A stretch of 31,090 bases of DNA from a virus. Taxonomy: Duplodnaviria; Heunggongvirae; Uroviricota; Caudoviricetes. Within the stretch, counting starts at the first letter, position 1. Every line of letters begins with the position of its first letter. The translations under genes were made by a program, and so were the position numbers. Shown here in pieces: positions 20,401 to 30,630 of this stretch. Location: the IMG/VR virus record IMGVR_UViG_3300028534_000019, positions 1 through 31,090 of that record; one strand, given 5' to 3'. The notes under the pieces are model-generated. The model saw nothing but the letters and a program-made list of their open reading frames with translations, was not told where the DNA came from and searched no databases.

Positions 20401-20694
20401 ATGATAAGTTTTTCTGAATTTTTAGAAGAGAAAATAAAAAATATGATAGATAGTAATTGGCATATTTTACAGTTAGATGATGGAACAGAACTACAAGCAA
20501 ATATGAAACTTATATCATTAAATAAAATAATAATAGCAAAACAAGATGATAGAACATCAAAAGAATATAAACTAAATACTAAAAATTCTATAATAGAACA
20601 AATAGAAAAAATTATTAATCAAAAGTTAAATATTAAAGATTCAAAAGTTAAAAAGTTTATAGAGTTATATCCTTGTCCTTGTGAAGTAAAATAG
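20401..20694 (+). CDS. Putative internal head protein with a capsid-targeting sequence (97 aa)
   Basis: The N-terminus MISFSEFLEE matches the T4 IP capsid-targeting pattern (MKTYQEFIAE). Confidence 0.7.
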   Translation: MISFSEFLEEKIKNMIDSNWHILQLDDGTELQANMKLISLNKIIIAKQDDRTSKEYKLNTKNSIIEQIEKIINQKLNIKDSKVKKFIELYPCPCEVK

Positions 20695-20703
20695 AGGTAT
20701 AGT

Positions 20704-21081
20704 ATGGGTAGAGTAACAAAAATTAGGGCTTCACAAACAAGAGCAGGAGAAGCATATACTAAACAAGATAATTCACTTGCTACTGATAGAGAAGTAGAAG
20801 AAAGGGTAAAAAAGCATAGTACATTATTTCATCATAATAGAAATGATAATACAATTTTTAGTTTTGATGCTGATGGTAATCTTACTTCGATAGAAATTAA
20901 AGACCCTGATACAAATGATACATTACAAAAGACTGATTTAAGTTTTGATACTGATGGTAATCTTTCAATTATAGAGAAAACTATATATGATTCAGCAGAT
21001 ACAGTATATACAAAGTTAAAAAAGACACTTGATTTTGATGCTGATGGTAATCTTTCTTCAATTTCAAATGAATTAGAATAA
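20704..21081 (+). CDS. Small protein (125 aa) with a TKIRxSQ N-terminal module and three FDxDGNL (YD-like) repeats
   Basis: The DNA repeat ttttgat(g/a)ctgatggtaatctt occurs at 20862, 20943 and 21033. Confidence 0.7.
   Translation: MGRVTKIRASQTRAGEAYTKQDNSLATDREVEERVKKHSTLFHHNRNDNTIFSFDADGNLTSIEIKDPDTNDTLQKTDLSFDTDGNLSIIEKTIYDSADTVYTKLKKTLDFDADGNLSSISNELE
20862..21054 (+). repeat. Three 22-nt direct repeats encoding FD(A/T)DGNL
   Basis: Copies at 20862-20883, 20943-20964 and 21033-21054, spaced 81 and 90 nt apart. Confidence 0.9.
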
Positions 21082-21092
21082 TATAGATAAAA

Positions 21093-21114
21093 TTAAGCTA
21101 AAAATAGATATAAT
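21093..21114 (+). promoter_or_regulatory. Host RpoD-type promoter TTAAG-N11-TATAAT
   Basis: ttaagctaaaaatagatataat upstream of the GAGG RBS and ATG at 21143. Confidence 0.7.
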
Positions 21115-21142
21115 AAATAATATAAAAAAAGAGGTATTTACA

Positions 21143-27423: not shown

Positions 27424-27444
27424 TTTACAAAAAGGAGTCTTTTT

Positions 27445-28725
27445 GTGGATACTAATTATGAGTCAGATACATTTACAGACCCTTTTCAACATATAGCATC
27501 TTGCCCAAGTTCTTCTGTTCCAATTAAACAATATTTAACAATAGATGATGGAACAGGAAAACTTTTTACATATGAATTACAAAAAGATTTAACTTGGAAA
27601 GAATATACTATAACACCCAACTTTTCAACAGACCCAATAGAACCTACAATAATAGATAATACTGATATAATTCCTAATATAGATGACCCTTATGATGTAG
27701 TAGGTTACAAAGACAAAGACCAAACTCACGATAACAATGATGGTGATACATTAGATGACATATTACCAGTTGATTATGATTTATTTGAAGATGGTACAAG
27801 AACTGAAAAAGGTGAAGATGAAACTATTACAGAAGTTTTATCAGTGCCAAGAGAACAGCATATTAAACAGACTGTTAGATATTTTACAGGGTGGGAAGTT
27901 AAGTATGTTGAATTAGAAAAAGTTATACAAAAAACAAACATACCACCAAAGGCTTGTAATGAATTAGATGCTAGTTGTTACACTGTTCCTGTACATTATT
28001 ACACTTCGTGTTCAACAGACCAAGAAGATAATCCTGAAGATTTGACTATTAATTGGCATTTATATAAAGATAATAATTCTTATGTAGAAATTTCAGAAGA
28101 TGATGATGGTAATGAAGTTAGAACAGTAGTACACGATGATGATAATTTAGATTGGGTTGAGGTAGCAACAAGAGAAGGTAATCCTGCTTTTAGTTATACA
28201 TATAATGATGAGGGGTATTATAAACTTACTGAAATAGCAATAGATAAAGATGATGCTGAAAATAATGTAGATAGATTATATGATATAGTATTTAAAAGTT
28301 GTGGTAGTGATACATCAGAACAAGATTTAATGGCTTCAGGTATAATTGAGGTTGAAGCAAATGTATGGCAACTTTGTGCAATACCTATGGTGTATGGTTA
28401 TTGGAATAAGGATACTCATAAAATAGCATATAATAAAGATGTAAGAAGTACAGTTAAAAATGTTATTATAGACCAAATTGAAGATGTTTATGGTACAGAA
28501 GCAAAAGACCTTATTATAGTAATTAATGGGTATGTTGGAGATGAGAATATATATAGAAATTATGTTCCTGGGTTTACAAAAGATACATCAGTACACAACT
28601 TTAAATTAGTATATATAGATGAAGATTATGATGTTGATGATGATATTACTAAATTTGAAATTAGTGGTTTTTGGATTAAATCAAAAGGAACACCTTTTGA
28701 GATAAAATGGGGAGTTGAAAAATGA
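27445..28725 (+). CDS. Acidic virion protein (426 aa) with a PKD-like segment and a C-terminal IIDQIEDVYG domain
   Basis: GTG start after GGAG. It contains FSYTYNDEGYYKLT (PKD-like), and its C-terminus is paralogous to 24783..25580. Confidence 0.7.
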   Translation: MDTNYESDTFTDPFQHIASCPSSSVPIKQYLTIDDGTGKLFTYELQKDLTWKEYTITPNFSTDPIEPTIIDNTDIIPNIDDPYDVVGYKDKDQTHDNNDGDTLDDILPVDYDLFEDGTRTEKGEDETITEVLSVPREQHIKQTVRYFTGWEVKYVELEKVIQKTNIPPKACNELDASCYTVPVHYYTSCSTDQEDNPEDLTINWHLYKDNNSYVEISEDDDGNEVRTVVHDDDNLDWVEVATREGNPAFSYTYNDEGYYKLTEIAIDKDDAENNVDRLYDIVFKSCGSDTSEQDLMASGIIEVEANVWQLCAIPMVYGYWNKDTHKIAYNKDVRSTVKNVIIDQIEDVYGTEAKDLIIVINGYVGDENIYRNYVPGFTKDTSVHNFKLVYIDEDYDVDDDITKFEISGFWIKSKGTPFEIKWGVEK

Positions 28726-30194
28726 GTTTGAACATAACACTAGCCGGAACAATATATAACAAAAATGGTGATGCTGTTGATGCTAAAGTTCAGGTTTTTG
28801 TATATAATAGTAATAATGGTTTAACCAAATGGAGTGATGTTAGAGATACAGAAGATACAGACTACAATATAAACTTAGGTGACCCTGATTTATCAGGTAA
28901 TGATAATACTTTAGGTTTAAATAATGTAGCTGGTGAGTATGCTTTAATTGCTGTTTGGTTAGATGGTTCAAGAACAGATAAAGATAATCCACCATCAGAA
29001 CTTGCTTTTGTTGTACAAGAAATGAAAGGTGATGATGTTTATCTTCAAGATATAATGTTAAAAGAACCATCAGCCATAACTTGTTCAGATTGGACTTTAC
29101 CAACAGAAGCAACAACAGAAGATACAATAATAGGAACTAATCAAAATACTAATGAATTTTCATATATAGAATTTGATAAAGAACATTTTGTCTATCATAA
29201 ATATTTTGATATTTCAGAAGTAATATTTTATGGTATGGGTGCTTGTAAAGTTGAATATGATTTTGGAGATGGTTATAGTACTTCAAATGTTCATACTGAA
29301 GATACAGGTGGAGATTTAGAAGTAAAAATTAAAGTTCAGGATTGTTATGGGAATATAGCTGAATGTTCTAAAACTATAAAAATATATTATATTATACATC
29401 AAGATTTTGTTTGGAGTCCTGATACAATATCTAAGGGTGATGATGTAAATATTGATGATAATTCAAGTGGAGATTTAGACCAAATATCTAAATATCAATT
29501 TGAAATAACTCTTGATGAAACTACTTATATAGATGGTTCAAATGTTACTTATACAGCTAATTCTTTTGGAAATATTTCTATTATAGAACATATAACTTAT
29601 TTTAATGGGTATGAGAATGTAACAATAGATTTAGAAAAAATCTTGTATATGGAAAATATCCCACCTCAGATAAATTTAGAAGCAATAGATATAAGTGATA
29701 ATGGTAGTCTTGAATATAAATTTATTCATAATGGCACTGATGAAGATGGTTATATTGAAAAAGTTAAATGGGAAATTTGGAGAAATAATCCTGATATTAA
29801 TGGTAATGATAATTGGAACTTATATTATACAACAGGTGAAATAAATGATTTAACACCGTGGGAATATAATTTTATTGATATTTTAGGTGAAATTAAAGTA
29901 ATTTCTACTGTTTATGATAATCAGGGAGCATCAGCATCACAAAGTTTTATAATTGAAAATAATTGTGATGATAAAGTAATATCTATTAATATTGAAAATG
30001 TAGATTGGACTAAAAAAGTTATTAAATTAAATTTTGATACAAAAGTAAATACATTAGAATTTTCTGAAAATATAGTTAAAATTGTTTGGGTTGAGAATAT
30101 TATTAAAGAACTTTGGAAAACTGATATTAAAAAATATAATTGGTCTGAAAAAATTAAAAAGATTACATTCTCATATAAAAATTGTAGAATATAA
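28722..30194 (+). CDS. Virion protein (490 aa): N-terminal NLGD domain, PKD-like domains and a short-repeat basic tail
   Basis: ATGA overlap with the upstream stop. It has YDFGDG and WSPDTISKGDDVNIDDNSSG (PKD-like) motifs and an N-terminus paralogous to 22541..24772. Confidence 0.7.
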   Translation: MSLNITLAGTIYNKNGDAVDAKVQVFVYNSNNGLTKWSDVRDTEDTDYNINLGDPDLSGNDNTLGLNNVAGEYALIAVWLDGSRTDKDNPPSELAFVVQEMKGDDVYLQDIMLKEPSAITCSDWTLPTEATTEDTIIGTNQNTNEFSYIEFDKEHFVYHKYFDISEVIFYGMGACKVEYDFGDGYSTSNVHTEDTGGDLEVKIKVQDCYGNIAECSKTIKIYYIIHQDFVWSPDTISKGDDVNIDDNSSGDLDQISKYQFEITLDETTYIDGSNVTYTANSFGNISIIEHITYFNGYENVTIDLEKILYMENIPPQINLEAIDISDNGSLEYKFIHNGTDEDGYIEKVKWEIWRNNPDINGNDNWNLYYTTGEINDLTPWEYNFIDILGEIKVISTVYDNQGASASQSFIIENNCDDKVISINIENVDWTKKVIKLNFDTKVNTLEFSENIVKIVWVENIIKELWKTDIKKYNWSEKIKKITFSYKNCRI

Positions 30195-30197
30195 ATA
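30190..30197 (+). promoter_or_regulatory. T4-type late promoter TATAAATA
   Basis: Perfect consensus overlapping the upstream stop codon, ahead of the GAGGAG RBS and ATG at 30220. Confidence 0.75.
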
Positions 30198-30219
30198 AAA
30201 TAAAAAGAGGAGTAATTTT

Positions 30220-30630
30220 ATGAAATTTACAGAGATGTTAGTGAGTGAAGATACAATACAAGAAAGTGAAAAATGGGCTAAGCAAGATTTAATTAATCTT
30301 ATTGAGGAACAAGAAATTGATGATGAAGAAATTATCGAAATTACAGAGGCTGTTTTAGAATATGTTGAAAGTATTAATGAAATTGCTTTAGATGAAAAAA
30401 TGAGTTCTCAAGCTAAAATTAAGGCAAATAAGTATAGAATGAAACCATCATTCAAAAAGGCTGATAGACTTAAAAAACAATGTATGGAAAAAAACAAAGA
30501 TAGAATAGCAAGTTCAGATGGTAAACTTACTTGTAACACTAAAGGTAAAGTTGTAAAAGGTATGCCAAAAGCAAAGAAAAAAGCATTACTTAAAGCAAGA
30601 AAGAAAAATGCTTCAAGAATAGTAGATTAA
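30220..30630 (+). CDS. Putative prohead core/internal protein, T4 gp68-like charge architecture (136 aa)
   Basis: Targeting-like N-terminus MKFTEMLVSE, an acidic first half ending SINEIALDE (compare T4 gp68 SINENMPLNE, from memory) and a very basic C-terminal half. Confidence 0.55.
   Translation: MKFTEMLVSEDTIQESEKWAKQDLINLIEEQEIDDEEIIEITEAVLEYVESINEIALDEKMSSQAKIKANKYRMKPSFKKADRLKKQCMEKNKDRIASSDGKLTCNTKGKVVKGMPKAKKKALLKARKKNASRIVD

Follow-up and report, generated by a model that had tools for sequence, protein, structure and literature searches.

Seven unrelated small proteins of a distant T4-like phage begin with a common tag that probably corresponds to the T4 capsid-targeting sequence

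A common N-terminal tag heads seven unrelated small proteins

The 31,090 nucleotides of the window analyzed here form the start of one 100,859-bp contig, the IMG/VR virus record IMGVR_UViG_3300028534_000019 (26% GC; CheckV completeness 44%), which comes from a distant T4-like myophage. Our analysis of this contig identified seven open reading frames (ORFs), five in the window and two beyond it, that encode small proteins with unrelated bodies and a common start of the form M-x-x-[F/Y]-x-[E/D]-[hydrophobic]-[L/I/M]-x-E. Since this start is nearly the one by which T4 loads proteins into its head, the seven are probably packaged head proteins, and we consider it likely (probability of about 0.65) that the tag represents the T4 capsid-targeting sequence (CTS) in the form that it takes in this lineage, placed on head proteins that are packaged and cleaved by a protease. 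The original prediction, which was made from the window alone, had proposed a capsid-targeting role for the tag and an interspersion of the tagged genes among late structural genes, in contrast to the clustered internal-protein genes of T4. Within what sequence analysis can show, the first of these proposals is upheld by agreement at four functional positions of the T4 CTS, by a control in T4 itself and, in relatives, by one tagged family that adjoins a prohead protease gene and by gene clusters similar to those of internal proteins, but the contrast with T4 is only partly true, as described below.

All five window proteins were found with the N-termini and at the positions first described (20401, 21143, 26555, 26814 and 30220), and the scan of the whole contig brought the family to seven members rather than five. 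ORF A (20401-20694, + strand) encodes a 97 amino acid protein starting with MISFSEFLEE (20401-20430), ORF B (21143-21376, + strand) a 77 amino acid protein starting with MTTFNEFINE (21143-21172), ORF C (26555-26797, + strand) an 80 amino acid protein starting with MKKFSEILLE, and ORF D (26814-27236, + strand) a 140 amino acid protein starting with MKTFSEYLTE. The tag of ORF E (30220-30630, + strand; 136 amino acids), MKFTEMLVSE, is looser, as had been noted, in that it is shifted by one residue, with Phe at position 3 and V-S-E as the site. Beyond the window, a 195 amino acid all-helical protein starts with MKKFSEYMSE (contig positions 41502-42089; L003:10502-11089) and a 169 amino acid protein with MKSFTDILIE (contig positions 74063-74572). 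The bodies are unrelated, as claimed, with BLAST searches of the sequences after residue 10 revealing no similarity among them or to other ORFs of the contig. ORFs A and C have orphan bodies: no Pfam or PHROG match was found for ORF A, and single-protein locus searches returned no IMG/VR relative for ORF A and no relatives for ORF C.

Across the seven proteins, position 4 is Phe and position 10 is Glu (with ORF E shifted by one), position 7 is Phe, Ile, Tyr or Leu (Leu in the shifted ORF E), and position 8 is Leu, Ile or Met (Val in the shifted ORF E). A ribosome-binding site (AGGA/GAGG) precedes each tagged start in the window at a distance of 6-12 nt. Of nine matches to the core [FYW]-x-E-[hydrophobic]-[LIVM]-x-E in 30,366 ORF positions, five lie at residue 4; when [ED] is allowed at position 6, six of 11 matches begin at residues 3-5, where 0.065 would be expected. 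In a six-frame translation, M-x-x followed by the core was found only at the tagged ORF starts. The predicted excess of the tag at N-termini over internal positions was confirmed, as the loose tag is present at 7 of 133 ORF starts and at none of 529 internal Met residues (Poisson P 9e-11). At the DNA level, a degenerate pattern yielded seven forward matches on the contig and none with a reversed-pattern control, and a single match in CP220, a T4-like Campylobacter phage that is equally AT-rich. The tag is far above chance and restricted to N-termini.

Calibration against the capsid-targeting sequence of T4

To calibrate the pattern, we turned to T4, in which ipII and ipIII both begin with MKTYQEFIAE, as the original prediction had stated. 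Among 277 T4 ATG-ORFs, the regular expression recovered only ipII, ipIII, gp24 (MAKINELLRE), Alt (MMELITELFDE) and 61.1 (MKTFKEFIKE). All of these but the last are known to be cut by the gp21 prohead protease, after L/I-x-E (PMC9026906). T4 IPI, in which MKTFKEF is followed by a distal I-T-E, was recovered by a half-tag pattern only. Within T4, the pattern singles out head proteins that gp21 processes. According to a review, the first ten residues of IPIII suffice for packaging (PMC9026906), and mutagenesis of the T4 CTS has assigned positions 4 and 7 to targeting and positions 8 and 10 to processing (PMC9026906, section 2.6). These four positions are conserved in the tags of the contig, with T4-type residues in register in six of the seven ORFs and with a one-residue shift in ORF E. 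It should be noted that the fifth T4 match, gene 61.1 (NC_000866, 18966-19130, - strand), lies beside the primase gene and encodes a 54 amino acid product with a full CTS-type start.

Conserved cleavage-type sites and modularity of the tag

In ORF D, the tag is followed directly by a conserved domain (RIYRNEDG...). Each of its 14 homologues has an [LIV]-x-E site within the first 14 residues and 2-6 residues before this domain (14/14); F/Y-x-E-hydrophobic is kept in 11 of the 14, and [LIV]-x-E persists even where the Phe is lost.

ORF E encodes an acidic variable half, the sequence L-D-E|K-M-S and a 75 amino acid basic domain with two Cys residues. The same layout is found across its family, which has a tag, a hypervariable acidic stretch, an [LIV]-x-E-K-M-S junction and a basic domain of ~75 residues; homologues from elsewhere carry canonical tags (MKTFREI.., MKSFRELI..), and in the shortest member the tag is fused straight to EKMS. 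In both the ORF D and ORF E families, cleavage-type sites are conserved at domain borders. The C-terminal domain of the ORF E family is very basic and harbors two invariant Cys residues, and it could bind DNA or metal. One 295 amino acid member (P0168) has an extra N-terminal domain that starts with MEYTEYLV, followed by an internal tag-like LSFSEFW. A BLAST comparison of ORF E with T4 gp68 gave 27% identity over 97 residues with an E-value of 0.001, a value obtained against a six-sequence database and with no composition correction; homology to gp68 was unsupported by hhalign, which assigned a probability of 1.7% to the match between the ORF E family and gp68.

Most members of the 169 amino acid family carry the tag, and a variable linker follows it. 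In one member a 60-residue insert separates the tag from the domain, the homologue in Paraglaciecola Antarctic GD virus 1 (PANV1, MW805361) is tagless, and the PHROG profile that covers this family (the unnamed phrog_21515) begins after the tag. Identical tags are also found on unrelated proteins: the ORF D decapeptide MKTFSEYLTE starts an unrelated 90 amino acid protein of PANV1, and the 8-mer FNEFINEE of ORF B starts two unrelated proteins on the viral contigs L099 and L100. Taken with the unrelated bodies on the contig itself, the tagless homologue, the insert and the shared tags show that the tag is modular. An alignment search of IMG/VR with the 169 amino acid family found only three distant loci, a metagenome scan returned three short contigs, and tblastn searches with the 140 and 169 amino acid proteins against 50,697 phage records returned no match.

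A widespread tagged family found in the head modules of some relatives

The family of the 195 amino acid protein comprises more than 129 homologous protein clusters from marine T4-like phages. Its members start mostly with M-[IKV]-x-[FY]-[KS]-E-[FY], and a second site of the (L/I)-N-E-S type lies near residue 30-40 in 107 of 120 members, an arrangement of half tag and distal cleavage-type site that resembles T4 IPI, where the distal site is I-T-E. The family has the near-invariant motifs D-F-x-x-K-x-D and T-G-P-I-H-x-x-D-A-x-T-G-W, and no Pfam family or fold match was found for it.

Among cultured phages, the only homologue is GD1_8 of PANV1, which starts with MKSYQEFLVE. In PANV1 the gene order is portal, GD1_6 (gp67-like), GD1_7 (gp68-like, with 55% identity to T4 gp68), GD1_8, protease, GD1_10 (MKSFDEYFELQE), scaffold and capsid. 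GD1_7 is clearly homologous to gp68, which cannot be said of ORF E. In addition, on the IMG/VR contigs G007 and G008 the gene of this family lies directly upstream of a protease gene of the gp21 family (PF03420, Peptidase S77). Linkage to head morphogenesis was observed for this family only, in PANV1, G007 and G008, and not on the present contig. The family is widespread and undescribed, and its gene is associated with the head module.

Tagged genes in related phages

In G004 (146 kb), the closest large relative, 8 of 232 ORFs are tagged, six of them within 6 kb around the gene of the 195 amino acid family. A similar cluster is found in G020, and PANV1 has a tagged triplet at 25.8-27.5 kb and a tagged pair at 53.5-54.5 kb; in all, the tagged genes of PANV1 are located at 6388, 7805, 25842, 26618, 27224, 53486 and 54516. 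No tagged protein other than the 195 amino acid protein is common to the contig, G004 and PANV1. The predicted absence of clustering, set against the T4 ip loci, is correct only in part: four of the five tagged genes in the window form two close pairs (20401 and 21143, with one ORF between them, and 26555 and 26814, which are adjacent), and those of the relatives G004, G020 and PANV1 are clustered.

In T-even phages, only the tag of the internal proteins is conserved (PMC3012670). The contig, G004 and PANV1 match this pattern, the tag being kept while the cargo bodies turn over. Reviews have already proposed that T4-like phages use the CTS for loading varied proteins.

The likeness to T4 internal proteins (IPs) consists of a strictly N-terminal ten-residue tag with an aromatic residue at position 4, a hydrophobic residue at position 7, L/I/M at position 8 and Glu at position 10, of its presence on unrelated small proteins, of variable gene clusters in relatives and of one family located beside the protease. 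The differences are that the phage itself is only distantly T4-like, that IPII and IPIII have Tyr at position 4 where the tags described here have Phe, that the contig carries seven tagged genes per 100 kb compared with three IPs in T4, that some of the tagged genes lie among replication and nucleotide-metabolism genes, and that none of the bodies has a homologue among the T4 IPs. The gp24 and Alt propeptides of T4 are also similar, with a short N-terminal hydrophobic-x-E-hydrophobic-hydrophobic-x-E recovered by the same regular expression. As in T4 gp68, the ORF E family is acidic and then basic, and GD1_8 of PANV1 lies between the protease gene and the gp68-like gene, which occupies the place of T4 gene 68; however, no clear sequence or profile homology connects the tagged proteins to T4 gp67, gp68, gp24 or Alt. 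The profile of the 195 amino acid family had no match in T4, and none of the profiles of the ORF D, 195 amino acid and 169 amino acid families found a homologue in T4 or in the Vibrio phage phiKT1024. In the giant phages phiKZ, 201phi2-1 and SPN3US, many different head-internal proteins, such as propeptide-bearing ejection and inner-body proteins, are cut after Glu by a gp21-related protease (PMC9026906). Their propeptides, long and diverse, are removed at S/A-x-E sites, whereas the tag described here is a short and near-invariant T4-type 10-mer with L/I-x-E.

A half-tag ORF was also observed in phiKT1024 (OM249648, 55539-55769, + strand), where it encodes a 76 amino acid protein that starts with MNFKEYLNK and is located between the tail-tube and PF03420 protease genes.

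Late-promoter boxes upstream of tagged genes

Four of the seven tagged genes, including both of those in a non-structural context, are preceded by a perfect TATAAATA box at a distance of 25-50 nt. Within 60 nt upstream, TATAAATA is present for 4/7 tagged genes and for 18/126 other ORFs (Fisher P 0.014). In the window, one such box (30190-30197, + strand) lies 30 nt upstream of ORF E. Also 30 nt upstream of ORF A, in the gap between this gene (20401, + strand) and the divergent ORF 19747-20355 (- strand), is the palindromic T4-type late-promoter box TATAAATATTTATA (20371-20384). This 14-nt palindrome is made up of a T4-type late box on each strand, the two boxes overlapping, and is present four times on the contig (20371-20384, 25593-25606, 79030 and 96408), each time in a divergent intergenic gap, so that it has the appearance of a bidirectional late promoter. 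The same palindrome is found upstream of the G004 orthologue of the 195 amino acid protein.

Structure predictions and function searches

When all seven tagged proteins were scanned against Pfam and PHROG, the only match was that of the 169 amino acid protein to the unnamed phrog_21515. As the original prediction had suggested, structures were predicted and searched with Foldseek, a check that succeeded as far as the models are concerned but gave no convincing fold match. AlphaFold produced good models of the 169 amino acid protein, which is alpha/beta (predicted local distance difference test, pLDDT, of 89), and of the all-helical 195 amino acid protein (pLDDT 86), in both of which the tag is predicted at the start of the N-terminal helix. 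Searches with these two models, using Foldseek against PDB and BFVD and a wide VIA search, revealed no convincing match. The best VIA match (Z 6.8) corresponded to Mediator or CapZ-like alpha/beta arrangements and was rejected as being within noise. Protein Atlas gave sub-threshold leads only, the cluster nearest to ORF D being "IpIV internal head protein" at 0.76, which is below the noise level.

No sequence or fold similarity to an IPI*-type anti-restriction protein or to a known anti-defence family was detected (Pfam and PHROG for sequence; PDB and BFVD for the 169 and 195 amino acid models). The anti-defence arsenal proposed for the five window proteins has no support yet and is at present hypothetical.

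Proposed role of the tag and alternative explanations

Based on these results, we propose that the tagged proteins would be made late and that, during prohead assembly, their short N-terminal helix would dock them on the scaffolding core. A gp21-family prohead protease would then cut after the Glu of (L/I/V)-x-E, and the mature proteins thus released would remain inside the head together with the DNA. Those cargos that are variable and lineage-specific (ORFs A, B, C and D and the 169 amino acid protein) would be the counterparts of the T-even IPs, and the host could receive them by ejection. Compared with variable effectors, the 195 amino acid family and the acidic/basic ORF E protein more closely resemble conserved proteins of the head core or internal proteins associated with DNA. 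The sequences show the tag, its restriction to N-termini, its agreement with the functional positions of T4, its modularity and, in relatives, the linkage of one family to the head-protease module, whereas we infer the docking, cleavage, packaging and ejection steps as well as any role against host defence. The mechanism is the known one of T4, in a distant lineage, and involves no new principle.

Several observations weigh against this proposal. The contig, which is 44% complete, contains no portal, PF03420 protease, scaffold or full-size capsid gene or head module, and the protease, scaffold and full-size capsid genes are likewise missing from G004, so that the enzyme that would read the tag is assumed rather than seen. 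The genes at contig positions 41502 and 74063 have non-structural neighbors, and in most relatives, among them seven other IMG/VR contigs, the gene of the 195 amino acid family is 10-28 kb from the protease gene. In T4 itself, 61.1 carries the tag though it is not known as a packaged protein, and some related large contigs, such as G009, have almost no tags. The enrichment of late boxes on the contig is modest (P 0.014) and was not seen in G004 or PANV1, which makes this line of evidence weak. In the model of the 169 amino acid protein, the tag continues into the first helix of the domain, and it could therefore be part of the fold. Finally, no proteomic data have been published for the relatives, and the PANV1 paper contains none.

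A variant of the proposal, which differs in the fate of the cargo, is that the tagged proteins enter the prohead as scaffold or core components, as do T4 gp67, gp68 and gp22, and are cut up and expelled or kept as structural filler, with no injected effectors and no anti-defence arsenal. This variant is a serious but less probable alternative. It would account for the more than 129 clusters of the 195 amino acid family and for its position in the head modules of PANV1, G007 and G008, as well as for the acidic-then-basic layout of ORF E, which recalls T4 gp68 and PANV1 GD1_7, with a similar G-[ML]-[SP]-K-A-K-[KR]-[KR] stretch; moreover, no tagged body has a defence-related fold or family. On the other hand, the profile comparison with gp68 described above argues against it for ORF E, ORFs A, B and C are orphans, and ORF D and the 169 amino acid protein are lineage-restricted and variable, as are the T-even internal proteins and unlike core scaffold genes. 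The 140 and 169 amino acid proteins are also predicted to be compact folded domains (with the high pLDDT given above for the latter) rather than scaffold-like coils.

The tag might instead address another machine, such as the Hsp70/DnaK-DnaJ chaperones of the phage itself, a protease, an AAA+ protein of the MoxR type or a site in the membrane, in which case its likeness to the T4 CTS would be convergent. The contig does encode DnaK, DnaJ, a second Hsp70 and an AAA+ protein, and a prohead protease was not seen on it, but we regard this explanation as unlikely given the match to the T4 CTS at all four functional positions, the near identity of the PANV1 start to that of T4 (MKSYQEFLVE and MKTYQEFIAE), the T4 control, in which the pattern marks gp21 substrates, and the adjacency of the 195 amino acid family to the protease gene. 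Conservation at the level of the mRNA, by an A/T-rich translation-start region or a late-mRNA element that incidentally encodes M-K-x-F-x-E, would fit a genome of 26% GC, where starts such as ATGAAAAAATTT are favored in AT-rich genes, and a late box and a strong ribosome-binding site are common to several tagged genes. This explanation fails because what is conserved is the amino acid class, while codons and x positions vary, and because this holds at 26%, 33% and 38% GC and in T4 and reaches the distal cleavage-type sites; Glu 10 and the distal [LIV]-x-E would be needless for an initiation element, and CP220, which has the same base composition, has its one match. We thus consider it very improbable. 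As for chance or the recent duplication of a single gene, only the small size of the proteins speaks for either, and both chance and paralogy are excluded by the comparison with internal Met residues (P 9e-11), by the unrelated bodies and by the occurrence of the same tag on other families in other genomes.

Candidate packaged proteins of uncultured phages

If the tag works as it does in T4, one short regular expression would identify head-carried and possibly DNA-delivered proteins of uncultured T4-like phages, candidates that are invisible to homology searches. Since proteins delivered from the head act before any phage gene is expressed, they would be prime candidates for first-strike counter-defence. 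The conservation of the decapeptide across the deep divergence of T4-like phages is striking. A bolder and more tentative proposal, of which we are doubtful, is that the decapeptide, nearly unchanged between T4, the Antarctic sea-ice phage PANV1 and a vent-type phage of 26% GC, offers a sequence handle by which metagenomes alone would yield hundreds of packaged and probably injected proteins, and that at least one of the orphan cargos (ORFs A, B, C and D and the 169 amino acid protein) is a novel injected protein that acts in anti-defence or host takeover and has a fold not yet in PDB. The gain is one of reach, together with a concrete set of candidates for packaged proteins. The analysis also highlights two conserved and undescribed families, the 195 amino acid helical family and the acidic/basic two-Cys family of ORF E, both of which seem to be head-interior proteins in many marine T4-like phages.

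Genomic context of the tagged genes

The assignment of the contig to a distant T4-like myophage is supported by its T4-type tail and baseplate genes and by its tail-tube protein, which shares 42% identity with those of the Vibrio phages phiKT1024, pv27 and Va1 and 35% identity with those of Campylobacter T4-like phages. A single-protein locus search with the tail-tube protein returned no relatives, and megablast of the tagged-gene region against cultured-phage records gave no match. The gp21-family prohead protease is a core gene of T4-like phages; we found a PF03420 protease in T4, phiKT1024, CP220, PANV1 and 9 of 41 related IMG/VR contigs, so that the nearest cultured relatives, phiKT1024 and CP220, both carry gp21-type proteases.

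ORF C starts 68 nt downstream of a gene that encodes a small Gp23-family paralogue of 287 amino acids (25624-26487, + strand; Pfam PF07068, 9e-28). This is the only Gp23-family match of the contig; it covers profile positions 140-372 only (the C-terminal two thirds), and the protein has ~21-25% identity to known T4-like capsid proteins. On L001, the neighbors of its homologue are non-structural genes (methylase and gene-32-type), and phiKT1024 has a similar small Gp23 paralogue (16858-17784) in addition to its real capsid gene. The gene is not the major capsid gene of a head module, and its product could serve as a vertex protein like gp24 or as an accessory protein of the shell. In G009, a 724 amino acid ORF with tandem Gp23-like domains is located far from the capsid gene.

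The stretch at 15-31 kb is a hypervariable region. The ORFs 24783-25580, 27445-28725, 28722-30194 and 21666-24772 have no homologue in G004, PANV1, phiKT1024 or T4. Two of these, 24783-25580 (- strand) and 27445-28725 (+ strand), encode large Asp/Asn-rich proteins that share a domain of ~100 residues (36% identity, E-value 4e-17), which includes the sequence ...VKN[LV]IIDQIEDVYG... and lies mid-protein in the former (residues 73-169) and near the C-terminus in the latter (residues 281-378). A weaker repeat is common to 28722-30194 and 27445-28725.

Beyond the window, a 244 amino acid ORF (contig positions 38547-39281; L003:7547-8281) encodes an N-terminal C-x3-C-x2-C cluster (GGSCKFNCEFCVGN) and has no Pfam match at E < 0.001. 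The idea that the tag is a leader for a radical-SAM enzyme was rejected, as the tag linked to radical-SAM proteins is a different, serine-rich motif and this Cys-rich ORF has no Pfam radical-SAM match.

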